Shown: positions 40,879 to 58,063, counted from the first letter of the stretch. The stretch: DNA of 64,000 bases from Bdellovibrionales bacterium (GCA_027317865.1 DAHVQG010000004.1:32001-96000), one strand, 5' to 3'. Notes: generated from the sequence alone by a model not told the origin. Made by a program: numbers and translations.

Positions 40879-42379
40879 CGTAACCCGAAAGCAAATCATC
40901 GCAATTCAGCTCCAACTGAGCCGACATTTTTTCAAATAATTTACGCTCACCGCTATTTAACGAATTAAAAAGATATCGCCGCCCCAACGGGCTGGAGTCA
41001 ACCGCCCGCAAAAGGTTTTTAAAAAAATCACGATTATTCAGTAGCGATTGACCCTTAAATTTTTCACCTCGAAATATTCCGATCAATCGCTTGAAATTAT
41101 ATTCAGTGGCGGTGCCCCTTTCGGCCATCCCCAATAGATCCTTAAATAAATCAAGCGCTGTCATCGGGGGATAAAGGCTTTTTGAAATTCGTTTTTTCGC
41201 GACCTGCATATATATCGCCATCGAATCAGTTGAATAATCTTTACTTGAAGATGACGTTTCGTCCTTATTACGCCAGTGCGGCACTTCGCCCCAACCATCC
41301 GAAAAAGAGGAAAATAGTGTTCGCCTTTCTTTAAACAGATCGGGAGCGGGAACTTGATCTTTAGGTATAAAAGTCAACGATTCGGTTCGTTTAAGTGGAA
41401 ATTCATACCCAAGTTCCAGCGCCGCTTTCTTAACTAAATCGATAAAGGTTGGGTCTCTCACAATTTTCATCACGTCGAACATTTCGCCGAGAATAGTTTC
41501 ATGCGCGGATGGCACATCTGCCCCCGGCGTTGTGCTTACTCGGCCATCCGCCGTGCGATGAAACGGACCAAACATTTCATGCCATCCGGTGGTATATGTG
41601 AGCGATGACGTTACCTTAGGCAAATAAAACGGATGAACCGGGCCTTCGGTCGTTATGTGACTGCGCTCCGATTCTTTCAATTGTTCAATATTAAGCGATG
41701 GCCTAATCACGTTGCTTTCAGTGCCGCCGCTCATGCCTATGCCAACGAAATTAACGCGATCGTAAAGCTTCTTTAAATCGCCTCCTTGAAGCGAATAACT
41801 TTGGTAAGCGGCGCGAATCAACTGACGCGATTGACTCGTTGAACGCCAACTCGTTACATCAAAGACGACAAACGGATAATCGTCGTTCATCTTTTCGAAA
41901 CTCAGCCCATTGCTACGTAAAAAATCAAACAAAAGCTCTCTGTCGTTTTGTGACGACTCTGTTGTCGCATTATAATAGTGTGGAAAACTCGGCCCGCTGG
42001 CATCCAGGCGCCTCACGCGGTTCTGTTGACCGATTGATTGATAGAAACCATCAAGCAAATCGGTCAGAAGCGCAACGTCGCGCCCAAGTCCAAGATATGT
42101 CGCACCCGGAAAAGCTCTTTCCATTGACGCAATGATGATTGCCGCATTTTGCGGTGAAAGCGAAACACCGTTATAAAACGGATTTATTGACGGCCATGTA
42201 TTGATTCCATATTTTGCGTCCATCGCAGATACAAACTCGTTTACAGTCGGACGGTTTCTTTGCTCTAAAAGCATTTGAATTGAATCGGCCGACCTCACGT
42301 TCATGCCGGCGGCCCGGCGGCCGTTGAAAACGCCAACTGTAAAAACGCAAATAAACGCCAAGCTTATCCAATACTTCAT
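40871..42379 (-). CDS. Exported PRTase-like 'GRD' family protein, paralog 3
   Basis: Signal-like N-terminus; FPGATYLGLGRD, SIGQQNRVRRL, PFVVFD, LGYEFPLKR shared with 48785 and 53594; C-terminal NCDDLL. Confidence 0.6.
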   Translation of the reverse strand: MKYWISLAFICVFTVGVFNGRRAAGMNVRSADSIQMLLEQRNRPTVNEFVSAMDAKYGINTWPSINPFYNGVSLSPQNAAIIIASMERAFPGATYLGLGRDVALLTDLLDGFYQSIGQQNRVRRLDASGPSFPHYYNATTESSQNDRELLFDFLRSNGLSFEKMNDDYPFVVFDVTSWRSTSQSRQLIRAAYQSYSLQGGDLKKLYDRVNFVGIGMSGGTESNVIRPSLNIEQLKESERSHITTEGPVHPFYLPKVTSSLTYTTGWHEMFGPFHRTADGRVSTTPGADVPSAHETILGEMFDVMKIVRDPTFIDLVKKAALELGYEFPLKRTESLTFIPKDQVPAPDLFKERRTLFSSFSDGWGEVPHWRNKDETSSSSKDYSTDSMAIYMQVAKKRISKSLYPPMTALDLFKDLLGMAERGTATEYNFKRLIGIFRGEKFKGQSLLNNRDFFKNLLRAVDSSPLGRRYLFNSLNSGERKLFEKMSAQLELNCDDLLSGYDD

Positions 42380-44442
42380 ATACCTTCCAAATTCTCGTGA
42401 TCAATAAGCAAATCAGCGCAACTGTGATTTTCAAAAATATTTTTGTATTGTTTGTATAGCGTCTTCCGCGCATCGGGCTGCAATCGTTCGATAGCTTGCC
42501 GGAGTTGCTCGCGGTTAGGATGCAATTCCAAAAACTTTGCAAATGAAACTGCCACAAAATCCGACATACGCCGTTCATACTTCGGCGTCGGATCTTCTTG
42601 GTCGAACTGTATAAGCCTTACATATTCGCTTGGAGTACGGACATAAGCCCTCATGACCTTTTTCATGTATTCAATAAACGGGGGACCGTGGCGCACCAGC
42701 GTTTTCAGTTCGTTCAATTGGTCAAAGCCGGGATGGCTCGCCATGATTAAATCCAAATTGTCTACCACAATTTGGGCAATCTGAGGTTTATTGAGCGTTC
42801 GGACAACCATCATATTTTTCACATATGAAATAAATGTCTCAGGTGAAGTAAGCGCTTGGCTCCATTCGTAATTTGCCACAAGAGGTATCAGAAGCGCCGA
42901 ATACTTTTCTTTTCGTAAATCATTTTCATCATTGTCGAGATAGTCCTTAATATTCAAATATTCGCTTTCGTTTAACGTAGTGAAAAGATTGTACCGGCGA
43001 ATTACGTAGTCGATAAAATCCGGATCTGCATTCCGAGCAATCAGCGCCGTTAAATTTTCTCGCGAAATATTCAAAGTTTCTGGAATGAGACTTAAACTAT
43101 TCCGGTTATACACGCTGATGATTCCCGGCATAAGCACGCTAAAATCTTTATTTTGAACCGAACGGGGATTAACCTCAAAACCAACCCAAATTTCGCCCGG
43201 TTTTCGAACAGGCGTCTCAGATAAAATAATACCGGGAGGACCCCGCATTGGATTCGTTTTTTGGTCGGGCAGCAACAAGTTAGGAGCGTTGAGTTTACCC
43301 ATACGAAGACGCTCGAATGTTTCAAAGTCATAAATTTTCATATAGGCCGTTTTTATTCCAAGTTCGCCCGCTGTCGCACCCTGTACGCCGCCCAAAGAAA
43401 ACGCCGGCAATGGCTTTTGCTCCATTAACCATGCAAGCGAATCCGTATCACTGCGCGACCCAAACGTAGAAAGGTCTTTGCGCACACCCATTCTGTTTAA
43501 ATCAGCCCATGCGGCGTTTACGTCTAAGGCGTTGTTGATAAGCTTATTTGCGTTTTTTTCGATCCAGCGCAAAGCTCCGTGATATTGCGGATCTGTCTTA
43601 ATTTTTGAAAATGGTGCCGTTCGCAAGATCCTTTCAACAACTTTGAGGCTATTGCGATCGGGTTTAAGGCCATACTCAAATACTTTTATTAAAAACCTCA
43701 ATGCACTGATGACAACAGGATTGCCGGACGAAGATCGCGAAGTGGAATGATGAAGGCCGGTATTAAAATAGGTGATTTCTCCACGGGCGACGTCGTGAAA
43801 AAACAATCCTTCATCGCGGCGGAATTTTCTCAAATCTTGAATTCGTGATCGCTCACCCGTTGGGTCAGTAATCTCAATAAGGCCTGTGGATCCCGAGTCT
43901 GTATTTTGATTCTTAAAATCTTCATTGTTTAAAATGTCCGCCTTGAAACCGATGGAATACTGGAGCGGGCGCACTTCCCAAACCGAAATAGTTTTACCAC
44001 CCGTTGTCTTTTTGTAGGGGAATTTCATCTCAAGGTCATGCTGAAGTTCTTCCGCATATTGAGGTTTCGCGTCAACCACAATATCGATGTCCTGATTAAA
44101 ATGAAATATATTGACGATGCTAAAATCCAGCCGATCAGCGGAGAAGTCCCGCGAACCGAGTTCATATTGTTCCGCCCAACGGCAATAAACGGCAAAGGCC
44201 TCCGCCGCTCCACCAAAAAGATAAGCCCGTATGCCTCTTTTTTCCGCCCATTCCTTTATAAATTGAAACTCTTTTACACGGTCCAAATCAGTCTGGATTA
44301 GCTTTTCAAACTCGAGATACGATCCGTTTTGCCTCGAAATGGAAAGCATTTCGGGGGGATTTTCGTTCGCCGACGCGAACGAAGGCCCGCATATAAGTAC
44401 AAGTGCGAAAACTGGCAAAAGAAATAGATTTAAAACCTTCAT
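42376..44442 (-). CDS. Exported nucleotidyltransferase-like protein (CCA/poly(A) polymerase-like head)
   Basis: Signal peptide ...FASA; AYLFGGAA, QDIDIVVD, DFKNQNTDS, SALRFL; C-terminal SCADLL. Confidence 0.6.
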   Translation of the reverse strand: MKVLNLFLLPVFALVLICGPSFASANENPPEMLSISRQNGSYLEFEKLIQTDLDRVKEFQFIKEWAEKRGIRAYLFGGAAEAFAVYCRWAEQYELGSRDFSADRLDFSIVNIFHFNQDIDIVVDAKPQYAEELQHDLEMKFPYKKTTGGKTISVWEVRPLQYSIGFKADILNNEDFKNQNTDSGSTGLIEITDPTGERSRIQDLRKFRRDEGLFFHDVARGEITYFNTGLHHSTSRSSSGNPVVISALRFLIKVFEYGLKPDRNSLKVVERILRTAPFSKIKTDPQYHGALRWIEKNANKLINNALDVNAAWADLNRMGVRKDLSTFGSRSDTDSLAWLMEQKPLPAFSLGGVQGATAGELGIKTAYMKIYDFETFERLRMGKLNAPNLLLPDQKTNPMRGPPGIILSETPVRKPGEIWVGFEVNPRSVQNKDFSVLMPGIISVYNRNSLSLIPETLNISRENLTALIARNADPDFIDYVIRRYNLFTTLNESEYLNIKDYLDNDENDLRKEKYSALLIPLVANYEWSQALTSPETFISYVKNMMVVRTLNKPQIAQIVVDNLDLIMASHPGFDQLNELKTLVRHGPPFIEYMKKVMRAYVRTPSEYVRLIQFDQEDPTPKYERRMSDFVAVSFAKFLELHPNREQLRQAIERLQPDARKTLYKQYKNIFENHSCADLLIDHENLEGI

Positions 44443-44459: not shown

Positions 44460-47400
44460 TCATTCCTCTTTTGTGTTTGCGCTAACGGGTTGACGTATCA
44501 TTTTCGATAATAGAGTTGCGCACGAAACCGGCTTTGCGTTTTTTGCGCGCGCCTGCCAATCTTCGTACGTCCGAACCGGCTGTTGTGCGCTCTTTAATTT
44601 TTCTTCAATTTTGTGTTCAAGATCCTGAGCTCGCGATTCGCTTATGTCCCCTTTACGCATCAGCTCGGCGACTATCGCGCGAACAAGCGGCCATTTTTCT
44701 TTAAGAACGGCGATCGCAATTTCATGAGCGCGCGAAATCATTTGGCTTTGCTTTTGTTCAAACAATTGCCTTTGTCGCGAAGTTGCAAGAATTGGATTGC
44801 CTTTTTTATCGACTTGAACTCCTACAAGGTCGGTATCCATTCCCCATGTGGTGAGATATTCGGTTGTTACATATCTCATCGATTTCAAATCGTTTTGCCA
44901 TCCAATGTCGGCAGGTAAGCCCGCAAGCTCTTGAGCCACTCGACCGCCCCAAGCTTTAACAAGAAATGCCATCGTCTTATCGTAGTTGAAATTCGTATCC
45001 GCCCCGGGGATCGGCTTGTAATGCGCGTAGCCTTTTGCCGTTATCATTTTGCCGGTGAAATCTTTGAGGCGAGAATAGCGGATCGTAATATAATTCAAGA
45101 TCTCATTGGTTAATTCGGGATCATTTAAAACCGCGTGGCCAGCTTCATGGTAAGCCACTGTCTCAGCGTGTTTACCTAGCGGAATTTCGACTTCGGGCGC
45201 GAATTCCGTAAAGTCTTTTTGTATATAATCGAGTTTTTTACCATCCTTGTACACTTCAACGCCGACTAGAACCTTACGCGGCTCCGATTTTTTCTGGCGG
45301 TACGGTTTATTCGTCAAATTATCTTGAACATCGAGTTTGAATACATACGAAGACAAATCGTGCCCGATGTCGCCAGTCTTCATCAGTGCGGCTCCAAGAA
45401 GCGCACCCAGCCGGTTATCAAGCGCATTTCGAACCGATCGGCCACCTGTATCCGGGGTAAAAAATGCTCGGGTAAAATTCTCAACAAATTTAGGGCCGTA
45501 TTCAACAATCAGGCCCACGTGCTGTTCTTGCAGTCTGCGAATTTGATTTTTAAGTTCCTTTTCTGTGACACCTTTCATTTCGGTGGAAAGAAGCGGTTTC
45601 GCCAGTATGACGTCGGCTAGGCGCCCGAGAAACGCTTCGGGAATCCCATTTTTCACAAGATTCGCGCGAATGATCTCTTTCTTATTATTTTCGTTGTACG
45701 CATCCATTCTCAATTTATCGGTACTGAGACTCGTGAAGAATTCCTGCAAATCGTTGCCGGTGAATTCAAAAATATGATTTCGAAGATCGTATGTTCGGCC
45801 TGTTGCTGTCGACGTCCATTTGCCTTCGTCTAAAATTTCGTAGAAGTATTGCTTAAGCAGCTCTTCTTTGCGTTTGATGTCACCCCCGCCCATGTTAGAA
45901 AATTCATCGAAAACAATCACCCCGCCGTTTGGAGTGTTCATGAGCGCTCGCTCGAATTTTCCGATTTTGTGAGAGTCGACGTACCCGGCCGGTGAATTGA
46001 ATACGTCGTTCAAACGGCCCTCGAAATTAACATTGCCGAGTGGAATGACTTCAACTCGATCGGGTGAACCAAAAAGCGCCTCCGCAATTGCGCGGCCCAA
46101 TTCCGTCTTACCGACGCCCGTTGGGCCCACAATGGCAAACGATACGGCGGTTTTTCGACCCACGTCCGCATATTTCGACAATACGGCATCCGCTGCGCTT
46201 CGAACCGCTTCGTCTTGCCCGATAATCCGCGTCTTCATTCGTTCGGGCATCGATTGGATTTTTTCTAAAATTTCTTTGTCTTGAAGAGGATTAAAAAATT
46301 TCTGCTCGGGAGCGGCAACATCCAGGCTCTCGCTGTTGGTCCCATTTGTTACGCTCAATTTCACATCGGATGAGTTTTCGTTTTTGACTAAACCGATTTT
46401 AACTGTCCCATCCCGAGGGATATCCCAGTGGGCGCGTGCCTCGCGAATGGCAACTTTAAGATACGAATCGACCTGTTTGGCAACTTGCCGGTAGCCGTCC
46501 GTAACCGAAAATCCGGTCAGCGCTAAATGTTCAACCACAGCCGGCGAGACGTCGAGATGGAGATGATATTCAAACTCCATTTCGTTTTGCAATTTTTCAG
46601 TTTCACGGCGGGCAACCTCAATCGCGCCTTCTCGTGAACCCGGGTTGGCAATCGCCCACTCGTCGATTCGGCCCAAAACTTCCGGAGGTAATTGAAATTT
46701 GTCTTCGCCATCCGTCTTTTCGCGAAACAGTGCCGCGACGTCTTTTGATTTAAAACCTGCAAGTCGGCGATCGATTTCAGCCTGACTCCACATCGTAATA
46801 TTGTCCGGAAAAACGAGCTTCGCTCCCCGATTACTCGTGAGGATAACGATGTGACGGTTTGCCCGGCGAACTTTGCCATCGCCGCATGTAATTTCACCTT
46901 TATCAAAAAACTCCATTAACCGCTTCCACACATCAGGATGCATTTTTTCGGCTTCATTAATTACGATCACGCCGCCCATCTTGCCGCGAGAGGGGTCATC
47001 AAGGTATTCGCACAAAATACCGGACCTCTTATCTGAAGTTACCGTGCCGTTCGGTGAACCCACCAAAGTATTCACCGACAAGTCGCCGGTCTGATAGGTA
47101 TTGCCGTCTATAATGAGCGCTCTTCTTTTTGAACCGAATACTTTTTCAGCCAACGTTTCGGCAATTAAAGTCTTGCCGGTACCGGTAGTCCCGATAATCG
47201 CCATGACTTGCGGGCGCCTCGGGGTTCCGATTAATAAATTACCGACGCGTTCGACAAGCTTGTGAACCAAAGATTTCTGTTCAACAACAACGGAATCGAT
47301 CTCTTTTTCTTTCTCAGCTAAATATTCTTGAAAAGCCTTACCGTCGTGAGGGTTCGCCGGCAGCCCCGTGATCTCTTTTGCGTAATCGTAGATTTCGCTA

Positions 47401-48812
47401 TCGGTAATTTTGGCTGGTGCCCCGTCGTTCAGTCTGTGTACGTGAATGGCGAGACCTTGCAAAACTTTAAACGGACCGTCCGGGCGTGCCGTATCCGGTT
47501 GCAACAGCGGCGCGACTTTAACCGCAGCTTCGATCGCGTCGTCAGTGAATTCCACATTATACTTCTTTTCGATAACGGGAACCCAACTTGCCTTCAAAAT
47601 CCTAATCGTCGTTGCTTCATCGAACTCAGTAAGACCGATTTGTTCCACACGGCGAAGAAGCGCTTCATTATCTTTGAATTTATTCTGAAACTTATCCGAA
47701 TTACTTGCGCCCAAAATGGTAATGCCGCGATCTCTGGCATCCATGTAAGGCAATAACGCTTCAATCTGCGCCTCGTTAAACGTGTGAAATTCATCCACGA
47801 ATACGATGATTGGCTTACGTTCGCCGTTGTGATCCTGAGCATATGATTGCTCATAAAAAAGAACCGCGTCAAAAAATTGTTCTACCGCTTCGGCCATCGA
47901 ATTCGGATCATTCGATTTTGCAAGCCGCGAGATCCTTGCGGGCGTAACTTGAATCATCTCCGCATTATCAAATGCCTCATTAAAAACTTCGGTATCCGGG
48001 TATAAATGTTCCACCAAGATTTGGGCTACGCGTTCGGCGGCCGCAGTTTTACCCACTCCGGGTATACCGATAAAAACCGGATTTTTGCCTTTTATCCGCA
48101 CAAGAGTGTCAAGCGCTCGCTCAGCTTCTTTGTCACGCCCCAGTGTTTCGACGAACGAGCCGTTTTCAATGCTCTTTTTCACTTCGTCGGTCATAAAATT
48201 AGTAGTCGCGGTCAGTATGATCTTCGCCGCGGCCATTTTTTCTTCACCTTCCGCTCCGGTGGAATCGCGCAAAAGTTGATCTTTAAACGACTGACCGTCT
48301 TGCGCACTTGCCGTTTGTTCCACCGGTAACGGTGTCGGATTCGAGCGAATGCGCTCTCGAATTTCTAAAAACAAGTCGTCCAATTTATTTTTAGTTTGAG
48401 CGTTGAACGCCGTAGACGCGCGAAATTTTTCGTAAATCTTGTTGAATTGTTCAACTTCAGCGACACTCCCCATCGATCCGATACCGTTAAGATACTCTGA
48501 AATGTGAAAAGAGTTCGGTTTAGGTTTCGCTACCTCGATCTTTAGTTTCGCCATTAGAAAATTTAAAACCATGCGATACGGAAAATCTTTCAGCGACGAA
48601 ATTAATTTGGATGTTTCGACGGGATCACGGCTCGTATCGACGGCTTTCATTTTGCCGATCATGAGATTATATTCTTTTTCAGACGGCGTTCGGCCCGACT
48701 TATTTAAAGACTGTGCAAATCCGCAAGCGCCGAAAAAAATTCCGGCCACAAGCGCGAAAGCGACTAAAATCTCACTTTTTGAATCTAAGATTCGTTTATA
48801 ACTTCGGCGCAT
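44460..48812 (-). CDS. Exported triple-AAA+ (ClpA/B-like) ATPase fused to FtsH-type M41 peptidase
   Basis: Walker A GIPGVGKT, GTTGTGKT, GPTGVGKT; Walker B VFVDE, VINE, VFDE; IIGQDEAV; AYHEAGH...GGRVAQEL...NDL; RBS AAGGGG upstream of the ATG. Confidence 0.85.
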   Translation of the reverse strand: MRRSYKRILDSKSEILVAFALVAGIFFGACGFAQSLNKSGRTPSEKEYNLMIGKMKAVDTSRDPVETSKLISSLKDFPYRMVLNFLMAKLKIEVAKPKPNSFHISEYLNGIGSMGSVAEVEQFNKIYEKFRASTAFNAQTKNKLDDLFLEIRERIRSNPTPLPVEQTASAQDGQSFKDQLLRDSTGAEGEEKMAAAKIILTATTNFMTDEVKKSIENGSFVETLGRDKEAERALDTLVRIKGKNPVFIGIPGVGKTAAAERVAQILVEHLYPDTEVFNEAFDNAEMIQVTPARISRLAKSNDPNSMAEAVEQFFDAVLFYEQSYAQDHNGERKPIIVFVDEFHTFNEAQIEALLPYMDARDRGITILGASNSDKFQNKFKDNEALLRRVEQIGLTEFDEATTIRILKASWVPVIEKKYNVEFTDDAIEAAVKVAPLLQPDTARPDGPFKVLQGLAIHVHRLNDGAPAKITDSEIYDYAKEITGLPANPHDGKAFQEYLAEKEKEIDSVVVEQKSLVHKLVERVGNLLIGTPRRPQVMAIIGTTGTGKTLIAETLAEKVFGSKRRALIIDGNTYQTGDLSVNTLVGSPNGTVTSDKRSGILCEYLDDPSRGKMGGVIVINEAEKMHPDVWKRLMEFFDKGEITCGDGKVRRANRHIVILTSNRGAKLVFPDNITMWSQAEIDRRLAGFKSKDVAALFREKTDGEDKFQLPPEVLGRIDEWAIANPGSREGAIEVARRETEKLQNEMEFEYHLHLDVSPAVVEHLALTGFSVTDGYRQVAKQVDSYLKVAIREARAHWDIPRDGTVKIGLVKNENSSDVKLSVTNGTNSESLDVAAPEQKFFNPLQDKEILEKIQSMPERMKTRIIGQDEAVRSAADAVLSKYADVGRKTAVSFAIVGPTGVGKTELGRAIAEALFGSPDRVEVIPLGNVNFEGRLNDVFNSPAGYVDSHKIGKFERALMNTPNGGVIVFDEFSNMGGGDIKRKEELLKQYFYEILDEGKWTSTATGRTYDLRNHIFEFTGNDLQEFFTSLSTDKLRMDAYNENNKKEIIRANLVKNGIPEAFLGRLADVILAKPLLSTEMKGVTEKELKNQIRRLQEQHVGLIVEYGPKFVENFTRAFFTPDTGGRSVRNALDNRLGALLGAALMKTGDIGHDLSSYVFKLDVQDNLTNKPYRQKKSEPRKVLVGVEVYKDGKKLDYIQKDFTEFAPEVEIPLGKHAETVAYHEAGHAVLNDPELTNEILNYITIRYSRLKDFTGKMITAKGYAHYKPIPGADTNFNYDKTMAFLVKAWGGRVAQELAGLPADIGWQNDLKSMRYVTTEYLTTWGMDTDLVGVQVDKKGNPILATSRQRQLFEQKQSQMISRAHEIAIAVLKEKWPLVRAIVAELMRKGDISESRAQDLEHKIEEKLKSAQQPVRTYEDWQARAKNAKPVSCATLLSKMIRQPVSANTKEE

Positions 48813-50401
48813 GATTCCCCTTTTAGGTTTTGCTTAACCCTTTCAAATAACCTTATTTTTTTCAGCGTCCAGTAGAGCGTCTTTTTCTGGTCGATCTCGT
48901 AAATTTTTTTCTTCAAGTTCGGAACCGTTCTAAAAAGTTTTGCGTATGCTTCGAGAAACGACGACGTAATTTTAAAGTCGCTACTAAGGGCGGCAATCAC
49001 CATGTCGGCCACATCGGCTTGAGTGGCCCACGCGCTCGAATAAGCATTGGATAGGTAATTTAAAAAGCGCGGCATTATTGCGCTAAGCTTGCTCACTGAA
49101 CTGTGTCGTGCCCGTATATGTTGCCAGGTACTCTGAAGGTAATTGAAATTGACGCCGTTTTGTCCCGCCCCATTGCTTTGTGCAACTTGCATAGCGGTTT
49201 CGTTCACAGCTCGCGCTTTAGGCGTGAAATTTGAAAAATCAAACCCGGGAGCGTTCGCCTTTTTCACCATATCGTCATTGTGTTGCAAATCCTGCCTGAT
49301 GATATCGGTGAGGTTCGTCGCGGCAGATGACGGCTCACTCGCCTCAGGTGACGGTCTTTTAAGTGGGAATTCATAACCAAGCTTTTTAGCAGCCTCGTAA
49401 ACTTGATGGTGAAATGTCTCAGAGTTGACTGCGTTCCAAATTTCTTTTTGCATCCATAATATATTTTCGTGCGTTCTCAGATCCGTAATATTTCCGGGAG
49501 TTGCCTTTAACTTTCCGTCTATTGAAACAATCGGCCCGAATGACTCTGTCCACGCCCCGGAAAAATGCTCGTATCCAGCCTCGTTCGATTTGTCTTGGTT
49601 TTCTGAAAAGCCCGTAAGTTTGAACTCGTCCCCGAAATTATGGGGCCGATCTCCGGTCAGGCTAAACTGGATTTCAAGATCACGCGATACGCTCTTGATC
49701 GCTGAAGACGGTACTGGAGCTGATCTAAACGTGCTCACAAACAACGCAAACATGTTTAGCTTTTTAATTAGATCCGCCGGTTTGCCTTTAAGATCATTGG
49801 CGTAATGGGAATACAAGGCGTTCAAAAACATTCGCCCTTGCTGTCCGCCTCCGGTTGAAACGGTATCGACAAACACGTACGGTTCGCGACGTTTGATATC
49901 CTTGAAACTAAAACCGTGTTCCAAAACAAAATGAACCAATGTTTGCGGAGTAACGCCGTTGAAACTGGCCTTGCTTACCATCAACCGCACAACCCGGTTT
50001 TGTTGCCCAATCGAGAGGTAAAATCCTTCGAGCATGTCCGCAATTGCCTGCGAATCGCGGCCGATAAATGCCCATGTCGCACCCGGAAATGTTTTTTCCA
50101 TCGCCGCGATCAGAGTTGGCCCATGCTTAAGCATCACTTTAACCCAATGCTCAGGCTGGTAAACGTGCGCATTTTTGACCTGAATAACGCTCGGTACATC
50201 TTCAAATTCAGGCAACTGGTTTAAAAAAGGTACTGATTCAGCCATCGTCGGGCGCGACGGCATTTCAAGCAGTCGAACAATATCCGGAGGAATATTCACG
50301 GCCCAACTGTTGTCTTGTTGCTGTCCTCGCGAAGTCGCGGACACCGAAACCGTCAGCAAAAAAGTAAAACTATAAATTAAAACTTGTGACGCAATTCTCA
50401 T
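48785..50401 (-). CDS. Exported PRTase-like 'GRD' family protein, paralog 2
   Basis: Signal peptide ...SVSA; FPGATWAFIGRDS, YVFVDTVSTGGG (PRPP-loop-like), LGYEFPLKR; C-terminal SCAEVI. Confidence 0.62.
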   Translation of the reverse strand: MRIASQVLIYSFTFLLTVSVSATSRGQQQDNSWAVNIPPDIVRLLEMPSRPTMAESVPFLNQLPEFEDVPSVIQVKNAHVYQPEHWVKVMLKHGPTLIAAMEKTFPGATWAFIGRDSQAIADMLEGFYLSIGQQNRVVRLMVSKASFNGVTPQTLVHFVLEHGFSFKDIKRREPYVFVDTVSTGGGQQGRMFLNALYSHYANDLKGKPADLIKKLNMFALFVSTFRSAPVPSSAIKSVSRDLEIQFSLTGDRPHNFGDEFKLTGFSENQDKSNEAGYEHFSGAWTESFGPIVSIDGKLKATPGNITDLRTHENILWMQKEIWNAVNSETFHHQVYEAAKKLGYEFPLKRPSPEASEPSSAATNLTDIIRQDLQHNDDMVKKANAPGFDFSNFTPKARAVNETAMQVAQSNGAGQNGVNFNYLQSTWQHIRARHSSVSKLSAIMPRFLNYLSNAYSSAWATQADVADMVIAALSSDFKITSSFLEAYAKLFRTVPNLKKKIYEIDQKKTLYWTLKKIRLFERVKQNLKGESCAEVINES

Positions 50402-52158
50402 TCTTCAGCATCCATCGGTTCAAATTCATCTTTGGGGAATTCATGTCTGTCAGACCTTGGGTTCACCAATGATCTTTCAATCTCAACCTTCTTTTGGCTT
50501 TCTAGCTCTTCAACAACGGACGCGACCTTCTCGGCGCTATCGGCAACCAGTATGTGGCTCTTGATTTCTGGCGAAAGCGAACTGTTCGCTATAAATTTAA
50601 GTAAATACGAGTAGTACTTTGAATTTTGAATCACGACGTACGGGGGCCGCTTCGAGTATTGAATCGCCACGAGCGTCGCCGCGAGCTCGCGCATGGTTCC
50701 GTTACCGCCGGGCTCAATAATTACTAAATCACGATTGTTTACTAGCAACGGTATCCGTGAATGGTAATCAAGCGTCGGAATCGTGTGCGATTGAACTTCG
50801 CTTCTTGTATCCGTCTCGTAAGGCAGCGCTCCACGACCGACGCGGGGTATTCCAATTGAAGGTCCACCCGCATCGTAGGCCCCCATGTTTGCCGCGTACA
50901 TAACTCCACCAGCACCTCCGGTAACCACCGGAATGCCGCGGCTCCCGAACCAATATGCCGTTTGATACGTGTCGGGGGCGACTTCTTCGTCTAAACGGCT
51001 CGACCCGAAAACAGCGGCACCGCGAACGCCAGAAAGAACTCTTACACCTGAACGAGTAACGTCCACGTGCTCAAGAAGAGCAATGATTTCACCAAGACTC
51101 ATATTATTTGGCGAAATGCTAAATGCTTTTAGATTAACTGGATCTTTTACGGCCGGGAAAACCGAATACCGTACTGATTCCAAAACGCGAGTGGCGTTGA
51201 CGATTGCAGATATCGAGTTTGTGATGCCAAGCCGCCGGTAGGATATTCCAAAACCCCTTTTTTCAGATTCCAGTAGACTCGACCAATCGTGAAGGCGATT
51301 TTTTGTATTACCGTCGAGGTCGAGAACAAATCCCGCATCATTATTGAGGAGTGCGGCCATCCCTAACGTCGAGTCCGGGCTTACAATTGCCGGCAAGGCA
51401 TGTGAAACGACTTCAAGAAATGAATACGAATTATTGAAATGTAAAACAATGCCAGGACGGCCTCTTTCATTTCTTGCCCCGGCTTCGGGTAACATTGAAA
51501 TTCCGATGCCGCAGGGACCCGCCGCTCGAGCAATTATTTCCGCCGCTTTGTTGTCGGCATCGTAGATAATTGTATAGTTTTTTGCCACGAGCTGAGCGAC
51601 AAGCCGTTCGTACTTCGTGGCTTCGGTGTCTGTTGGCGCACGATCGGACGAACCAACGAGAACCGAAACCAGTTTCGAGCGCGGCAACCTGTACACTTCT
51701 AATATTTGTTTGTAGTCTTCAAAAAATCCTCTATCTTCGGGTACAGCCAACCGCTCTTTTAGAACCGGGATCAACGACAACCGGTTTTTTTCTTTTAATT
51801 CTTCGATCAACCCCTCGAGTTTTTTTATTTTAAATTTGAGGTCAGCTATCTTCTTTTTGACTTCCGCGCGTTTTTCCGGTGAACGGGCTGCTGGTGATTT
51901 TTCGGCGTATTCGAGGTAAAAACCCCAAAAATCGCTTGCATCACTTGACTCAAGTTTGTTTTTTAATGACCTAATCTCGCGTTCCATTTCGCGAAGTTTT
52001 TCTATTGCTTCGACGAGTTGCGGGCTGCGGTATTCGGCAAGTTTAAAGGCCTGGGCTTTTTCACCTTTTAAGACACGGTCGCAAGGCTGCCCGTAGGCGC
52101 TAGAAATCGCGAAGGTTGAAACCACAAAAGCGCATAAAAACAAGCGGCGCGAAATCAT
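50398..52158 (-). CDS. Exported tandem LOG/SLOG nucleotide phosphoribohydrolase
   Basis: AAVFGSS, VTGGAGGVM, SIGI, SRIPLL, PGGNGTMREL; preceding degenerate LOG copy; N-terminus SRRLFL...AYG. Confidence 0.82.
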   Translation of the reverse strand: MISRRLFLCAFVVSTFAISSAYGQPCDRVLKGEKAQAFKLAEYRSPQLVEAIEKLREMEREIRSLKNKLESSDASDFWGFYLEYAEKSPAARSPEKRAEVKKKIADLKFKIKKLEGLIEELKEKNRLSLIPVLKERLAVPEDRGFFEDYKQILEVYRLPRSKLVSVLVGSSDRAPTDTEATKYERLVAQLVAKNYTIIYDADNKAAEIIARAAGPCGIGISMLPEAGARNERGRPGIVLHFNNSYSFLEVVSHALPAIVSPDSTLGMAALLNNDAGFVLDLDGNTKNRLHDWSSLLESEKRGFGISYRRLGITNSISAIVNATRVLESVRYSVFPAVKDPVNLKAFSISPNNMSLGEIIALLEHVDVTRSGVRVLSGVRGAAVFGSSRLDEEVAPDTYQTAYWFGSRGIPVVTGGAGGVMYAANMGAYDAGGPSIGIPRVGRGALPYETDTRSEVQSHTIPTLDYHSRIPLLVNNRDLVIIEPGGNGTMRELAATLVAIQYSKRPPYVVIQNSKYYSYLLKFIANSSLSPEIKSHILVADSAEKVASVVEELESQKKVEIERSLVNPRSDRHEFPKDEFEPMDAEE

Positions 52159-53597
52159 TGAGAACCTTTCAGTATCGCCTGACAGTCGCCAGCGGATTTA
52201 TCATGTGGTTTAACAATAAGATCTTCGACAGCACGGCCGAGTTCCTCACCGATCGGGACAATGACGAGTTTGGAATTCTGTTTTACGACCGCATTTGATA
52301 CGGGATACGAATCCGTCACAACCAGTTGATCAATAGATGCACTATTGAGCGCTTTACCGCCGTCGCCCGCGAGGTGTGTAACGACCGCAATAACTTTAGT
52401 CGCCCCTGCTTTCTTCAAATAATCAGCCACGTCCGCTAATGTGCCCCCGGTTGACGTTTCATCGTCTACAATAGCGACAACTTTGCCCGCCGGGCTCGGT
52501 CCGCTGAATCCGTAAAATTTTGTTTGAGCAGTGAGTGGATCGCGCTGTTTATTGGCGACAGCAACAGGCAACTTCAGCATGTCCGCATAAAGCGTGGCAT
52601 CTTTTTGAAATCCCGTATCCGGTGAAACAATCATTTCAACATCGGCATTTCGCAAGTACGCGCACAATGTATTAAGGCCCAAAACATTAAAGCTCGGAAT
52701 ATCAAAAAAGCCCTGTGATTGCGGAGCGTGTGCCCGAGCAAATTCGATAGCCTCTGTGCCAACACTTTCAATTAAGTCGGCAATCAGACGGCCAATCACC
52801 GTTACACCTTTTTGATCCGCCTTATCCGATCGCGCCCACGGCAACGGCGTTACCCACGTTACGGCGGCTCCATCTCTTGTCATCTGCGCAACTCGCGCCA
52901 AGGCGGCAAAAAAGGTTTCACTTTTGGGGATTACGACTGGCCTCACAAAAATTATTTGCGCGCCCTTTACCGCTCCTCTCGGGAGAGAACCTGGATTATA
53001 AACCGGCAAATTCAGAACACGCCCCATATCGCGAGCAATCGAATCGTGGGAGTCTTGAAGAATAAAACTGTGTGTCAGATGATGCCTGCCGGGCCAAACA
53101 CGACGGATTCTAATGGTTCGCGGATGGTTCCCGTTTTCAACAAACTTGGTCGCACCCGCTATGCCGATAAGCGATTCCACCGGTAAGGCAAGCGAACCGT
53201 TTGCGGTCGTGACCCGTATTTTTGAAATCGAAGTATTAAGAAAAGCAACAATCTCTCGTGCACCGAGCGTTCTTGCCGTTCGAATCTTAATCAAAGCCTC
53301 CATAAACATTTGGGGCGTCATTTCATCTGGAATCAAAATCCCGACTCGTTTGCCAGTAAGATTGGTCTGCACGCGCACGAAAGTGTCGCCGTTAGAAAAC
53401 TCTTGAGTTTTTTCTTCAATCATCCGGCAGCCAGGGTGTGACGTGCAGAATCGATTAGCAGCTTCTGAAAAATTACGTACAGAGAATAGTAATACGCTTC
53501 GATTGCGGGCGCTGGCGTAACCCGAGCCGACGAGCATAAGGGTCGTCATGCTCAAAAATGCAATTTTATTTAAACCCAACCCTTTCATCGTCCTCAC
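52155..53597 (-). CDS. Exported ribose-phosphate pyrophosphokinase (PRPP synthetase)-like protein with duplicated N-domain
   Basis: FSNGD, PWARSDK, HAPQSQGFFDIP, VSPDTG, KQR, IVDDETSTGGTL; signal peptide ...YASA; C-terminal DCQAIL. Confidence 0.88.
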   Translation of the reverse strand: MRTMKGLGLNKIAFLSMTTLMLVGSGYASARNRSVLLFSVRNFSEAANRFCTSHPGCRMIEEKTQEFSNGDTFVRVQTNLTGKRVGILIPDEMTPQMFMEALIKIRTARTLGAREIVAFLNTSISKIRVTTANGSLALPVESLIGIAGATKFVENGNHPRTIRIRRVWPGRHHLTHSFILQDSHDSIARDMGRVLNLPVYNPGSLPRGAVKGAQIIFVRPVVIPKSETFFAALARVAQMTRDGAAVTWVTPLPWARSDKADQKGVTVIGRLIADLIESVGTEAIEFARAHAPQSQGFFDIPSFNVLGLNTLCAYLRNADVEMIVSPDTGFQKDATLYADMLKLPVAVANKQRDPLTAQTKFYGFSGPSPAGKVVAIVDDETSTGGTLADVADYLKKAGATKVIAVVTHLAGDGGKALNSASIDQLVVTDSYPVSNAVVKQNSKLVIVPIGEELGRAVEDLIVKPHDKSAGDCQAILKGSQ

Positions 53598-55198
53598 CCT
53601 GCAGGTTTCAAAACGTCACTACACGTGGCTTCTAACATTTTACTTAACCGCTCATATGCCTTCGATCCGAGCGGACCGGATTTATGTTCGTTATTTAAAA
53701 AATATTCCCTCTTTGAGTTCCAAACTTCTTCGAAGGTGCGGCTGTTATGGTAGAGATGCGCCAAGCCGCTTTCAAATTTCTCACGCTCGCTCACGGCCGC
53801 GCCATTAACCGTGTCTTCACTTGCAATTGGATAGTTCGCAAGTAAACGCTTGATTAGGCGGCGAAGATCGCGCGCGCTAATTTTGCCATTTTCAAATGCA
53901 TGTACCGAACCCGCTAAAAACATGAGCGCAATTTGACCCGAATTTTTGTCAGTGCGGCCGTAAACATCCGATTTCATAAGAGACAAAATCTTCATTCCGT
54001 TTTCAGTCATCGGTTCGGCATCTTCACCAACAGGGCCAAGCTCTGAAATTATATCTTTGAACGATCTCTGCGCTTCAGCTATACGCTGTTCGGCAATTTC
54101 GTCGGCCGTTAGCATTCGAATGTCCGTTCGTTCGCGCGCGCGCCCCTCTGGGAACTCATACCCCAGTTCTCTAGCCGCTTTTTGCACTTCACTATAAAAC
54201 TCTTTTGTCGAAACAATTCCTATGATGTCGTACAGACCACCTAAAATTGTTTGGCGTATTTCAACGCTGGACAGACCTCCAGGTGGAGCGAAAACGCGCC
54301 CGTCTTGCATGCGCTGAAGTTGAAGGAATGGGCCGTGCCACTCTGAGCTGTAAGCAAGTTGGGCGCCATCGATTTTCAAAATTCGATCAGGACCGGTTGG
54401 CTGAGCATTCGATGTTTTAATGTACTTTTCGATTTTTTTTACAGTTTCATAATTTTGCGATCCAATTATCGGGTAGTTCGAATTTTTTATGTCAATGACA
54501 TTGACCTTCATCAAAAGGTTCGTGAGCGGCTTTTGTGTGCCTTGGTACACACTATAAAACGCACCAATATATTGGCGGCTTTGGCTCGTAGGGCTGTAAC
54601 TGGTCGCATCGATAATAATAAACGGCGGGTCTTGATCCACAGACTGCAGATGAAGTCCGTTAGTCGCCAAAAAATCGACCAAAATATCGGGCGTGCTGCC
54701 AACCAAAGATTGCCCGCTTGCATTGAGCCGCACGACGCGATGGTTTTGCCCGTGAGCTCGGTAAAAAGCGTCGACCATATCGGCAATCAATGCGGAGTCG
54801 CGACCCAAAAACGCATACGTTCCGCCCGGGTAGGCCGCTTCAAGACTAGCAATAATTTTTGGCCCGTCAGCCTTGGTTACAGCCACGGCTTGCGAACGTT
54901 CACCGGCATTTCTAAAGGGATTTTTTCTTGGCCACGGCGTTAACGCATTTTCGATTTCGGCAATGGTCGGGCGAGATTGCATGTTAAGCAATTCATTGAT
55001 TTTTTCATCACGAGCCTTTTTAGCTAATTGCTCCTGAACTTGCGGTTCGCCCCCATCGCTCAAATTAGTTGTCGTTATAGTCCCAAAGGCTCCGTGCCAG
55101 GACGTCCGGCTATTCGCCGCACGAACCTTCGCCGACACCGAAGCTGCTACAATTAAACCGGCGATCAACATTGATAACGCCTTACCCATTTTCCCCAC
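53594..55198 (-). CDS. Exported PRTase-like 'GRD' family protein, paralog 1
   Basis: Signal peptide ...SVSA; YPGGTYAFLGRDS, RVVRLNAS, PFIIID, LGYEFP; C-terminal TCSDVL. Confidence 0.6.
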   Translation of the reverse strand: MGKMGKALSMLIAGLIVAASVSAKVRAANSRTSWHGAFGTITTTNLSDGGEPQVQEQLAKKARDEKINELLNMQSRPTIAEIENALTPWPRKNPFRNAGERSQAVAVTKADGPKIIASLEAAYPGGTYAFLGRDSALIADMVDAFYRAHGQNHRVVRLNASGQSLVGSTPDILVDFLATNGLHLQSVDQDPPFIIIDATSYSPTSQSRQYIGAFYSVYQGTQKPLTNLLMKVNVIDIKNSNYPIIGSQNYETVKKIEKYIKTSNAQPTGPDRILKIDGAQLAYSSEWHGPFLQLQRMQDGRVFAPPGGLSSVEIRQTILGGLYDIIGIVSTKEFYSEVQKAARELGYEFPEGRARERTDIRMLTADEIAEQRIAEAQRSFKDIISELGPVGEDAEPMTENGMKILSLMKSDVYGRTDKNSGQIALMFLAGSVHAFENGKISARDLRRLIKRLLANYPIASEDTVNGAAVSEREKFESGLAHLYHNSRTFEEVWNSKREYFLNNEHKSGPLGSKAYERLSKMLEATCSDVLKPAG

Positions 55199-55201
55199 TG
55201 G

Positions 55202-57613
55202 TTATTCCCTCAACCTTTCAGTTTTAACGCTTTTCGCGCCGTTATCTAAATATTTCGTATTTATATCACTTAACGCATTTCGAATGTCGTCCGCCGAATT
55301 CACCAAATATATCCTCGACAAAACCGATGCTGGTAACTTCGATTCTTTAAGATAGTTGGCAAGCGATCCGTAGAAATCGTTGGCCACAAAAATGATGCTT
55401 TGGCTCTTATTGAGGCCCGATGCGAAATTGACAAAAGCTGTCGCCAGTTCTTGAAGCGTCCCCTTACCGCCCGGCATGACCACGACAACGTTGTTCATAT
55501 AGAGCAACAACGGGATACGCGTTCGATAGTCAGTCGTTGATAAGGTCAGATTATGGACATCTGTCGCTGCCGATTTTTCACGCCATAGACTGCCACTCTC
55601 AAGCGGAATACCGATCGAAATGCCACCCGAGTTTATGGCGGCATCGTTGGCAATTCTCATAAACCCGTCCGCTCCACCAGTCGCAATGGCCAAACCGCTT
55701 TGCGCGATGGTTTTCGAGATGCTGTAAACCATCGAATCATATTTTGACTCTCGGGTACTTGAACCGAAAACGACCGCGCCCCCGGGAGTTTTTTGGCGTA
55801 ACGCCTGAACGGCTTCGGTCATTTCACGCTGATAATTCGAAATTTGTGAAAGTTGGTGGCGATCTAATTTCGCGATAAATTGGCCGTCATTTAATCGAAC
55901 CGGTTCCGTTTCTGCGAAGACAATTCCCGGCGTATCGCTATATTTTTCATAATCACTATATTTGCTATATTTTGATTTTTTACCGCGAAGACTTTCAATC
56001 GCTTCGTTGTTTGTTTTAAATTTTTGGATGCTAAGAAAGTGGTAATTGTCTCGAATCCCAAACGAGTAACCGTCAATGTTGTCAGTCCATTTGCGTAAGC
56101 CACCTAAGATGGGAAAATCAGAATTGTTGATAGTGCCGTCAATGTCCTTTTGAAGAAGCAATCCAAACCCGGTGACCGAGTCAGCCGTCATGATTCGATT
56201 GTTCGAATATGCAAACGCCTTCATTCTTAGGTACGGATTGGGTATCGATAAAATCTGGCTATTGTGGAGCATTGTTTCCGAACCGGCGGTCACTTCGCTC
56301 GTAATACCGACTCCACGGTCACCGACGGCTTCTGCGATAAGCGGCGCTGTCGGCACGTCGGCATCAAAAAAAACTATATAACCGTTCTTCGCCGCCGATC
56401 GAGCCAGCTCCACCGCTTCATTGGCATCGGCGTTGTTTGCGGCGCCCGTCAGAAGTGTCAGAGTTTTTGAAGTTCCGTCGCAGATAGCTTGCACCCAACG
56501 ATAATTCAGCATTTCACGGAGGTAGCCGCTATTTGCGTTTTCTTGTTTCAGTGCCGATATAAAATTGGCTTGAAGTTCGGCCGTCTGCTTTAACTCTCGT
56601 TCACGTTCCGCAATAAGCCGTTTTCGCTCGTTTTCTCTTTGTTTGGCGGCTATCTCTTCGTAATTTTCTTGAAGTTCGCTCAATGCGACTCCCTTCGGAT
56701 AATCGCTCTCTTTTAGAAATTTGAAATTCCAGTCAGCGGTACGCACGAGACGCGGCTTACCGTCATCGTCGAAAAATGAAACCACGTAGTCAGAGTTAAT
56801 TAATGAATCCCTTGCCCGGCCATAAACCAATGCGATCCGTTTCGACTTCGTCTTTATGCCTGAAACGGATGAGCCCGTAACCGGATCACGAAAGAACGAA
56901 TTTGAACTCAATACAGCAGCAGCCACTGCATGTTCCGGCTTTAATCCCTCGGTTTTGCGAATCACGGTGTTGATTGCCAACAACTCCTTCGTCGGAGATT
57001 CAACTTTTGTCGACGGAATCGGCACTTCCGCGGCAGCTAGCGATTCTGTTTTATTTTCTAAAGCATTGAGTTTCGGCGATTCTCGTCGTAACAATACCGA
57101 CGCCGCGACCAACGTCGAGTGGCCTTTGATTCGTGAAAATTCCGTTCCGTGTCTTTTAAAAGCAGAATCGTTGTAAAACTCTAATTCTTCTGGTTCAACC
57201 CAAGCGATTCGACGGCCATGAGTTGTCCATCCAGAAATTGCGACGGATGTTCCGCCTAACTTAAAATCATTGTTTTTAACCCCATAGACATAAATATCGT
57301 TCAACGGCGAAAGCACGACGTTACCGCTTAAGGCAATTGGCGAGGTCAATTTGGCGAGAGCGATCGGTTTCGTTTCGGCACTAACCTCAGCTATGTCCGT
57401 TGTGAGTGCTTTGATCGCTTTTTTAAAAGTCGGCTCTGTGGTATTTGTCCCACGCAGAATCAATTCGCAAACTGTAGACTTCTTTTCACTTTTCCCATTT
57501 TTCTTTGTGGCCGCGTGGGCCGAATTAAAGCTGAACAATATCAACAATGAAACAAGCAAAAGGGCTTGAGAATTACAGTCGTGAGACTTGAGCTTTAATG
57601 GCGCCCCCTTCAT
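55202..57613 (-). CDS. Exported tandem LOG/SLOG protein with extra N-terminal region
   Basis: Signal peptide ...SAHA; AVVFGSS, ATGGADGFM, SIGI, TRIPLL, PGGKGTLQEL; degenerate first LOG copy; RBS-like AAGGTGAGGGG upstream. Confidence 0.82.
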   Translation of the reverse strand: MKGAPLKLKSHDCNSQALLLVSLLILFSFNSAHAATKKNGKSEKKSTVCELILRGTNTTEPTFKKAIKALTTDIAEVSAETKPIALAKLTSPIALSGNVVLSPLNDIYVYGVKNNDFKLGGTSVAISGWTTHGRRIAWVEPEELEFYNDSAFKRHGTEFSRIKGHSTLVAASVLLRRESPKLNALENKTESLAAAEVPIPSTKVESPTKELLAINTVIRKTEGLKPEHAVAAAVLSSNSFFRDPVTGSSVSGIKTKSKRIALVYGRARDSLINSDYVVSFFDDDGKPRLVRTADWNFKFLKESDYPKGVALSELQENYEEIAAKQRENERKRLIAERERELKQTAELQANFISALKQENANSGYLREMLNYRWVQAICDGTSKTLTLLTGAANNADANEAVELARSAAKNGYIVFFDADVPTAPLIAEAVGDRGVGITSEVTAGSETMLHNSQILSIPNPYLRMKAFAYSNNRIMTADSVTGFGLLLQKDIDGTINNSDFPILGGLRKWTDNIDGYSFGIRDNYHFLSIQKFKTNNEAIESLRGKKSKYSKYSDYEKYSDTPGIVFAETEPVRLNDGQFIAKLDRHQLSQISNYQREMTEAVQALRQKTPGGAVVFGSSTRESKYDSMVYSISKTIAQSGLAIATGGADGFMRIANDAAINSGGISIGIPLESGSLWREKSAATDVHNLTLSTTDYRTRIPLLLYMNNVVVVMPGGKGTLQELATAFVNFASGLNKSQSIIFVANDFYGSLANYLKESKLPASVLSRIYLVNSADDIRNALSDINTKYLDNGAKSVKTERLRE

Positions 57614-57986: not shown

Positions 57987-58063
57987 TGGCGTCCCCGGCA
58001 AGAATTGAACTTGCGGCCTGCAGTTTAGGAAACTGCTGCTCTATCCGGCTGAGCTACGGGGAC
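57987..58063 (-). tRNA. tRNA-Arg (anticodon CCT)
   Basis: GTCCCCGTAGCTCAGCCGGATAGAGCAGCAGTTTCCTAAACTGCAGGCCGCAAGTTCAATTCTTGCCGGGGACGCCA folds as a cloverleaf, anticodon CCT, encoded CCA. Confidence 0.96.

Follow-up and report, generated by a model that had tools for sequence, protein, structure and literature searches.

A predicted exported ATP-dependent protease combining three Hsp100-type AAA+ modules with an FtsH-type M41 domain in a Bdellovibrionales genome

A 64,000-nucleotide stretch of a Bdellovibrionales genome (GCA_027317865.1, DAHVQG010000004.1:32001-96000; hereafter the window) contains on its minus strand an open reading frame (ORF) whose product, P0001, carries motifs of ClpA/B-type motors and of an FtsH-type protease behind an N-terminus resembling an export signal. 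In textbook accounts, AAA+ proteases work in the cytoplasm or in organelles. What kind of machine does this locus encode, and where would it work? P0001 is most likely an ATP-dependent protease that is complete in one chain and has a new architecture, with a predicted order of signal, N-domain, three Hsp100/Clp modules and M41 domain (Table 1). As to its role, we tentatively favor, with somewhat less than even confidence, a Sec-exported, hexameric, four-tier unfoldase-protease that would draw on a victim cell's ATP to digest the proteins of that cell, one tool among those of a tagged exported set. To our knowledge, neither a three-ring Hsp100-type stack fused to an FtsH-type protease nor a bacterial AAA+ protease whose export signal is conserved has been described; full-text literature searches returned no description of the architecture or of the terminal cysteine motif that P0001 carries.

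An earlier inspection of the DNA (the sequence-only reading) had proposed one D1-like and two D2-like AAA+ modules followed by an M41 zinc protease, and this layout holds by Pfam, NCBIfam and PDB matches and by structure alignment. All motifs quoted in it were found in the translation: LGRDKE (223–229), GIPGVGKT (249–256), VFVDEFH (337–343), GTTGTGKT (541–548), VIVINEAEK (615–623), IIGQDEAV (862–869), GPTGVGKT (896–903) and VFDE (967–970) in the motor part, and HEAGH (at the claimed nucleotides), GGRVAQE (1288–1294) and NDL (1307–1309) in the protease part. Pfam assigned AAA to residues 246–376, AAA_2 to residues 537–718 and to a second stretch, ClpB_D2-small to residues 1077–1141, and Peptidase_M41 to residues 1215–1396. 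By NCBIfam, residues 193–792 were colinear with ClpA D1-D2 (positions 158–718 of 734), residues 847–1145 aligned to the D2 part of ClpV/ClpB, and residues 1215–1392 aligned to FtsH positions 417–595 of 598. Sequence matches in PDB were ClpC D1 for residues 210–453, ClpB D2 for 468–782 and ClpC/ClpB D2 for 849–1141; Plasmodium HSP101 (6e10, 6e11) was also among the PDB relatives of the AAA+ part. The N-domain (residues 35–205) had no Pfam family at E ≤ 0.05, and its alignment (A3) comprised 10 sequences only, with 12–26% identity. A Shine–Dalgarno-like sequence, AAAGGGGA, lies a few bases upstream of the ATG at 48812, and the start of P0001 overlaps the end of the upstream gene.

The C-terminal domain was checked for its likeness to M41, and the M41 fold, the HEXXH motif and the Asp ligand were all confirmed. 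Peptidase_M41 (PF01434) scored 49.3 bits against a cut-off of 29.9 and was matched at profile positions 7–189 of 191. In 25 aligned family members (alignment A1, to which all motor and motif counts refer) HEXXH was intact in 23 and D1308 was nearly invariant. A profile built from the C-terminal 301 residues of P0001 and 26 relatives (A2) matched Thermus FtsH (PDB 2dhr) with an E-value of 2.3e-29, aligning TAYHEAGHA, LAGRAAEE and the Asp of ENDF. The AlphaFold2 model of the C-terminal part had a mean predicted local distance difference test (pLDDT) score of 90.9; Foldseek placed AFG3L2/FtsH at the top (E 6.6e-10), and VIA-align superposed model residues 59–254 on E. coli FtsH 399–597 with a Z-score of 22.0 and a root-mean-square deviation of 2.3 over 179 residues. 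Between module 3 and the protease the model contains a small beta linker (residues 1150–1207; strands at model residues 7–15, 32–40 and 43–51; pLDDT 86–97), for which structure comparison of the model gave no clear match. The 45-residue tail after the protease lies outside the FtsH-aligned range and has no FtsH counterpart.

Is the fusion a genuine gene or an artifact of assembly? A search of 5.8 billion proteins gave 30 further proteins (P0002–P0031) of the same architecture with 27–64% identity, from many separate contigs. They carry AAA, AAA_2 and/or M41 families and are recorded as ‘AAA family ATPase’ or hypothetical proteins; where the organism is named, it belongs to Bdellovibrionales, Pseudobdellovibrionaceae, Bdellovibrionaceae, Oligoflexia or ‘Deltaproteobacteria’. 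The next matches after P0031 were ordinary ClpB/C/V proteins with 19–43% coverage. Among 401 genomes of the phylum, 42 had a match at E ≤ 1e-40; the match reached the M41 part in 39 and spanned the D1 module to M41 in 25. The family was present in 31 of 203 genera. A scan of contigs for related loci listed 80, dominated by ordinary FtsH/Clp, with no family member among them (best, 28% over part of the query). In contigs from public sequencing runs, one of run X1, which may be the source sample, spans the whole gene, and contigs of three further runs cover it; record 4 of run X2 bridges 44600–45787, the motor–protease junction. Run X4 contains a 95–99% variant in two long pieces, and run X5, from a second study, contains short pieces. 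The fusion is thus kept in 30 relatives and in 39 of 401 genomes, with its junctions bridged in other runs. Since relatives have the same architecture and the domain has an M41 fold, neither of the two findings that could have overturned the sequence-only reading, a C-terminal domain unlike M41 or an assembly chimera absent from relatives, was made.

Elsewhere, the same genome (G000) encodes two ordinary FtsH proteins (663 and 606 residues) and a housekeeping Prs, and it has frames resembling ClpB and ClpA; thus, the fusion protein and the operon copies described below are extras. Two paralogues were observed in it. One (C22:92359-95850, minus strand; 1163 residues) has two AAA modules and M41, with 37% identity to residues 504–1416 of P0001; the other, more divergent (C38:191229-194516, plus strand; 1095 residues), matches M41 at 25.9 bits, less than the cut-off. 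Each begins with a signal-like N-terminus and carries the C-terminal Cys motif.

Compared with FtsH, Yme1 and AFG3L2, P0001 likewise unites an AAA+ motor and a C-terminal M41 domain in one chain, with HEXXH, the Asp ligand and the same fold. However, FtsH has two N-terminal membrane helices and one AAA module of the classic clade, whereas P0001 has one signal-like segment and three Hsp100-type modules; it scored 47 bits against the cut-off of 600 of the FtsH model TIGR01241, in the protease part only. In P0001 we did not find the FtsH-type N-terminus of two transmembrane helices flanking a periplasmic domain: its single hydrophobic segment lies at residues 8–36, and no other exceeded the hydropathy threshold. 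The tail with its invariant Cys motif is also foreign to FtsH. Compared with Hsp100 proteins, modules 1 and 2 are colinear with ClpA D1-D2, and module 3 corresponds to the D2 of ClpB/ClpV, its D2-small domain and GYVG-type pore loop being part of the alignment. However, ClpA/B/C/V have two modules, whereas P0001 has three, a fused protease rather than a separate ClpP, and an export signal; its D1 and first D2 differ from those of ClpA/ClpB in having no aromatic pore loop. The scores of P0001 were below the equivalog cut-offs of ClpB (TIGR03346, 248.7 vs 1232), ClpA (TIGR02639, 225.8 vs 993) and ClpV (TIGR03345, 255.8 vs 885). Clp_N (PF02861) and the D1 lid/M-domain family AAA_lid_9 (PF17871) were absent from the precomputed Pfam lists of P0001–P0031 and present in those of the ordinary Clp proteins P0032–P0120; they were also not among the 25 listed of the 44 families found by Pfam.

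Which of the three rings would work as motors? Module 1 has the Walker A motif GIPGVGKT, the Walker B motif VFVDEFH and an Arg pair (387–388); its pore-loop site reads AKSND, with no aromatic residue. The pattern GxxGxGKT was kept in 24 of the 25 members (the first Gly was Ala in two rows), G252, G254, K255 and T256 were invariant, the Walker B Asp was invariant and its Glu at least 90% conserved, the Arg pair was present in 23, and no member had an aromatic residue at the position of the ClpB pore-loop Tyr. Module 2 comprises GTTGTGKT, VIVINE, the sensor-1 sequence TSN, R715 and the sensor-2 residue R775, and its pore loop, SPNGTVTS, also has no aromatic residue; one member of 25 has one there. 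Module 3 comprises IIGQDEAV, GPTGVGKT, VFDE, a GYV pore loop, TGND, R1064, R1125 and the D2-small domain. Its Walker A motif and DE pair are invariant, and in its pore loop 13 members have Tyr, 7 have His, 2 have Phe and 1 has Asn, the loop being deleted in the other 2. All Hsp100 D2 features (Walker A, DE, GYVG loop, sensor-1 Asn, Arg finger and sensor-2 GAR) are present in module 3; module 2 lacks two of them, an Asp in Walker B (it has Asn619) and an aromatic residue in the pore loop. Modules 2 and 3 have 27% identity with each other (E 1e-13) and score closer to ordinary Clp D2 (E 1e-27 to 1e-30); since each is nearer to ordinary Clp D2 than to the other, the duplication is old. As regards the IGF/IGL loop by which ClpA, ClpX and ClpC dock ClpP, the tripeptides IGL (392), IGL (806) and VGL (1099) occur in P0001, counted as bare tripeptides whatever loop they lie in.

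The sequence-only reading held that the middle ring may be catalytically dead, which was overstated: only the Walker B Asp of module 2 is replaced by Asn (NE in 16 members, DE in 9), and its Walker A motif, Lys547, Glu620, sensor-1 Asn661, Arg715 and sensor-2 Arg775 are invariant in all 25. Over the three modules, conservation is complete or at least 90% for the Walker A lysines, the Walker B Asp/Glu of modules 1 and 3, Glu620 and the sensor and arginine residues. As judged from the alignment, the true deficit of modules 1 and 2 is the absence of an aromatic pore loop, module 3 retaining one. All three rings, we conclude, bind ATP and probably hydrolyze it, and module 3 would be the main translocating ring.

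Two relatives, P0008 and P0014, have lost HEXXH (YREVGQ and FHHIGH), along with pore loop 3 and the Arg pair of module 1; both retain the C-terminal Cys motif. Because these losses coincide, translocation and proteolysis appear to decay together, and P0008 and P0014 may be pseudo-enzymes. This coupling bears on a further explanation, an ATP-independent periplasmic chaperone or protease whose nucleotide sites are structural relics. The periplasm is generally held to lack ATP, and the first two modules have no aromatic pore loops. Nevertheless, the catalytic residues of three modules have stayed invariant or nearly so across 27–64% identity, and the motor decays where the protease site decays, so we give this explanation only a very slight chance.

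The proposed export signal is real as a sequence feature: P0001 begins with a positive n-region and an uncharged hydrophobic stretch ending in GFA/QS. Signal-peptide features were scored by our own scripts (hydropathy and flank charge). An uncharged hydrophobic stretch of 10–25 residues was present near the N-terminus in all 24 tabulated members; the N-flank had a net charge of +1 to +4, which exceeded that of the C-flank in 22 members and equaled it in two, the reverse order being seen in none. This flank charge predicts an N-in/C-out topology, as of a signal peptide or a type II anchor, unlike FtsH. Sec features (positive n-region, uncharged h-region, small-x-small site and less positive mature start) were found by the same scripts in the family and in the operon. 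Since the signal extends across the whole family, the machine most likely works outside the cytoplasm of its producer. In Bdellovibrio bacteriovorus, Sec signal peptides suffice for the extracellular release of a reporter, according to PMC12622784.

The same N-terminus could instead hold the protein in the membrane. P0001 would then be an uncleaved, membrane-anchored quality-control protease with its catalytic domains facing the cytoplasm of the producer, as in FtsH; ATP is available there, FtsH-type proteases are membrane-bound, and the hydrophobic stretch of P0001 has 19 residues. Against this, the charge distribution predicts the opposite topology in 22 of 24 members and supports the anchored orientation in none, the stretches of relatives are as short as 10–13 residues and are followed by small-x-small sites, the genome already has two ordinary FtsH genes, and every operon neighbor begins in the same way. 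We regard an anchored protease as rather improbable.

What is the machine encoded with? P0001 belongs to an operon of nine minus-strand genes running from 57613 down to 39793, most of which overlap (Table 1); all nine proteins have signal-peptide-like N-termini. Two sets of paralogues are present among them: n534, n538 and n502, of no known family, and n803 and n586.

Table 1. Predicted features of P0001 and of the genes around it; coordinates are those of the window.
Feature	Coordinates	Strand	Details
P0001, whole ORF	44460..48812	−	1450 aa, stop codon included; frame open throughout
Signal-peptide-like N-terminus, residues 1–34	48711..48812	−	MRRSYKRILDSKSE, then 19-residue uncharged stretch ending GFA
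N-domain, residues 35–205	48198..48710	−	Weakly conserved; missing from shorter members (about 1250–1280 aa)
AAA+ module 1, ClpA/B/C D1-like, residues 206–500	47313..48197	−	Pfam, NCBIfam, PDB ClpC/MecB 169–397
AAA+ module 2, D2-like, residues 501–845	46278..47312	−	Pfam; PDB ClpB 530–822
AAA+ module 3, canonical D2-like, residues 846–1149	45366..46277	−	Pfam; NCBIfam ClpV/ClpB 552–837
Small three-stranded beta linker, residues 1150–1207, module 3–protease junction	45192..45365	−	AlphaFold2 model
FtsH-type M41 zinc protease domain, residues 1208–1405	44598..45191	−	Pfam, profile vs PDB, Foldseek, VIA-align
HEAGH zinc-binding/catalytic motif, residues 1222–1226	45135..45149	−	HEXXH conservation; FtsH alignment
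Candidate third zinc ligand, D1308 (NDL)	44889-44891	−	Aligned with Asp of FtsH ENDF
C-terminal tag CATLL, C1431–L1435, in tail 1406–1450	44508..44522	−	Beyond FtsH fold
tRNA-Arg(CCT)	57987..58063	−	Directly upstream of operon
n803	55202-57613	−	SLOG/LOG-like C-terminal domain; N-tag CELIL
n534	within 48785..57613	−	Family Y; C-tag CSDVL
n480	52155-53597	−	Ribose-phosphate diphosphokinase-like; C-tag CQAIL
n586	50398-52158	−	SLOG/LOG-like C-terminal domain; N-tag CDRVL
n538	within 48785..57613	−	Family Y; C-tag CAEVI
n688	42376..44442	−	CCA-adding-enzyme/poly(A)-polymerase-like nucleotidyltransferase; C-tag CADLL
n502	40871-42379	−	Family Y; C-tag CDDLL
n368	39793-40899	−	Endonuclease/exonuclease/phosphatase (EEP) family; N-tag CGHLL

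The Prs-like assignment of n480 (NCBIfam) was made at 152 bits against a cut-off of 113; the housekeeping Prs scored 389 bits. We take Prs to convert ATP and ribose-5-phosphate to phosphoribosyl pyrophosphate (PRPP) and AMP, and LOG-type enzymes to convert a nucleoside monophosphate to a base and ribose-5-phosphate; n480 and the two LOG-like proteins, all putatively exported, could then turn the ATP of a victim into adenine and PRPP. The protein n688 carries the hG[GS]...DxD signature (LFGGAA...DIDIVVDA). Its model (pLDDT 66 overall, 80–90 over most of residues 40–460) matched CCA-adding enzymes in Foldseek (E 8e-6), and its predicted fold is that of class II CCA-adding enzymes and poly(A) polymerases behind a signal-like N-terminus. 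In 6 of 21 loci a member of the n688 family (c1) lies no more than about 10 kb from the fusion gene, and in most of these the two genes are immediate neighbors; genome G120 carries the whole operon set. The activities of these neighbors require ATP, nucleotides, RNA or DNA, which argues for a cytoplasm-like site of action.

A ParB-like nuclease with a signal-like start adjoins the operon on the opposite strand. Upstream of the tRNA, the minus strand from 58089 to 63999, continued in G000 on contig C37 to about 97250, encodes a 573-residue frame, T2SSE (355 residues), T2SSF, a histidine kinase and a sigma-54 response regulator; going by gene order and domain content, we take this cluster to be of pilus type. 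No sigma-54 promoter with up to two mismatches was found in the gap 57614–58088; window-wide, there were 75 matches against 64 expected. A genomic island, suggested by the adjacent tRNA-Arg, was considered and rejected, as neither an integrase nor a break in G+C content was found.

With such neighbors, P0001 could also be the protease effector of a nucleotide-centered conflict system, for example an anti-phage system, acting inside the producer beside the SLOG/LOG, phosphoribosyltransferase-fold and nucleotidyltransferase proteins. Domains of these three kinds are, we presume, common in such systems; weak PADLOC matches were obtained for the AAA part (PDC-M37B and DolB) and the SLOG part (PsyrA), and a tRNA gene stands at the cluster border. 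However, the N-terminus of every protein is of export type, PADLOC matched nothing beyond the generic AAA or SLOG parts, integrase and compositional break are both missing, and the neighborhood is not conserved with the fusion gene. A conflict system has, in our estimate, little chance of being correct.

What links these exported-looking proteins to the machine? A Cys-x-x-hydrophobic-hydrophobic motif was found in the last 45 residues of all 31 family members, where C1431 is the only invariant Cys, and on all nine operon proteins, either shortly after the signal peptide (n803, n586 and n368) or near the C-terminus (the others). This terminal motif, common to the family and the operon proteins, is new here. 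Members of the n688 family carry it at either end. In other genomes, the spelling of the motif in the neighbors changes together with that in the fusion protein: at locus L117 all five genes have CxxLF, at L118 both have NRCADLLSG, and at L123 CKKLF occurs with CEKLF. Because the motif is common to the machine and its neighbors, some functional link is likely.

The motif was searched genome-wide in G000 as Cys-x-x-[LIVM]-[LIVMF], with a crude signal-peptide rule of our own. Among 590 signal-bearing ORFs, it occurred in the window after the signal in 22 and in the last 30 residues in 24, compared with 37 of 4625 internal windows (binomial p 5e-9 and 2e-10; with operon members excluded, 4e-7 and 1e-7). 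The corresponding rates among signal-less ORFs were 2.1%, 2.0% and 1.4%. About 46 of the 590 signal-bearing ORFs were thus tagged, roughly 5-fold over internal windows, with the densest cluster at the fusion operon; other examples are C2:95442-97067, C11:119054-121589, C33:113761-115785 and C42:106424-107668. Of 40 further tag carriers scanned, 34 had no Pfam family, and the rest included Peptidase_C1_2, Peptidase_S41, Peptidase_S51, an S-adenosylmethionine (SAM) methyltransferase, a MafB19-like deaminase and DUF7790, with weak RelA_SpoT and P-loop matches. Usually cytoplasmic enzyme types were observed with a signal-like N-terminus and a tag: the MafB19-like nucleotide/nucleic-acid deaminase (C11:250929-251543, minus strand), the SAM-dependent methyltransferase (C42:24376-25110, plus strand) and a bleomycin-hydrolase-like peptidase (C2:95442-97067, plus strand). 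The N-terminal tag of this peptidase is kept in Bdellovibrionota-type homologues with 36–59% identity (P0123, P0124, P0126, P0141 and P0145); homologues named as Elusimicrobia (P0125 and P0127–P0140) have signal-like N-termini followed by long Ala/Pro-rich stretches and no Cys tag, and some homologues have no signal at all. A 400-kb sample of genome G232, in which no fusion gene was found, had two weak tags among 61 signal-bearing proteins. A role of the C-terminal Cys as a zinc-capping cysteine switch was considered and is weakened: P0008 and P0014, with degenerate HEXXH, keep the Cys, and neighbors that are not proteases carry the motif. We read the tag as a putative common sorting or recognition signal of an exported set.

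A stronger version of this idea would make the tag the address that the motor reads. The AAA+ stack would then recognize the Cys tag on co-exported cargo and unfold, mature, translocate or finally remove it, in the last case as a kind of timer protease. The tags lie at the termini of the mature proteins, where AAA+ unfoldases usually engage, their spelling co-varies with that of the fusion protein across genomes, the fusion protein is itself tagged, and the N-domain, having no Pfam family, could be a receptor. A parallel exists in the Plasmodium translocon of exported proteins (PTEX), in which HSP101, exported by a signal peptide, works outside the cytoplasm of its maker, around an intracellular invader, on cargo with a motif (PEXEL) shortly after the signal; the presence of HSP101 among the PDB relatives of P0001 fits this analogy. 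PTEX translocates and has no protease, whereas here a protease is fused and the motif may stand at either end. With a protease chamber where the stack ends, degradation is a better fit than delivery, and no pore-forming partner was identified; we therefore judge a tag-directed machine unlikely, if not to be dismissed. In its boldest form, the tag would be a trafficking code marking predator effectors (about 46 of 590), some of them enzymes dependent on ATP, SAM, nucleotides or nucleic acids, with the triple-AAA+ M41 machine as its reader, a bacterial counterpart of PTEX/PEXEL coupled to a protease; this we consider quite improbable. A pairing of related parts outside the cytosol is described in PMC10818064: in the mitochondrial intermembrane space, the D2-type Hsp100 protein CLPB (Skd3) and the M41 protease YME1L occupy the same non-cytosolic compartment. 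There they are separate proteins, whereas in P0001 the corresponding parts are fused, with two more AAA+ modules.

How, then, would an exported protease that consumes victim ATP work? If it resembles ClpA/B and FtsH, P0001 would form a hexamer with four tiers stacked on one another. The N-terminal tier would admit the substrate, module 3, the sole module with an aromatic pore loop, would do most of the gripping and pulling, and the zinc-protease chamber at the opposite, C-terminal end would receive the chain; the domains follow one another in the polypeptide as such a path would require. The machine would act outside the cytoplasm of the producer, in a compartment still holding ATP. This compartment may be a killed or permeabilized prey cell, Bdellovibrionota being a predatory phylum, and prey proteins would be unfolded and digested there beside the co-encoded nucleotide- and nucleic-acid-degrading enzymes. 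Action on target-cell proteins, already suggested in the sequence-only reading, is plausible from the context: an export-type start is seen in all nine operon proteins, and the activities of several depend on ATP, nucleotides or nucleic acids. Architecture, conservation, catalytic motifs, M41 fold, signal-like N-termini and the common tag are observed; we infer the hexamer stacking, export, site of action, substrates and role of the tag, taking the stacking and the axial path from ClpA/B and FtsH.

Several points weigh against export into prey. The export call comes from our own sequence rules, the hydrophobic stretch of P0001 is of membrane-anchor length, and it ends in FFGAC30, a possible lipobox that relatives do not share. 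A protomer of 160 kDa would need to get through the outer membrane into a space with ATP and to assemble in that space. Only about one in ten of the sampled genomes has the family, and only 1 of 100 in the best-sampled family has it; predation does not depend on it as a core tool. That this organism is a predator is taken only from names on the records of relatives. The neighborhood is poorly conserved, with the n688 family alone recurring. Finally, a 400-kb sample of G168, which bears the fusion, had no tag among 51 signal-bearing proteins, so that the tagged set is not uniformly large.

P0001 and its relatives provide a natural test case for AAA+ mechanics, namely for what extra rings without aromatic pore loops contribute. 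If the machine works outside its producer, predators would exploit the ATP of their victims to run degradation machines of their own. If the tag is a sorting signal, the effector sets of uncultured Bdellovibrionota would become readable from sequence, and the question of the protein route into the prey interior would be opened. Were the tag truly a trafficking code read by this machine, it would offer an initial entry point to the delivery of proteins into prey by Bdellovibrio-like predators.

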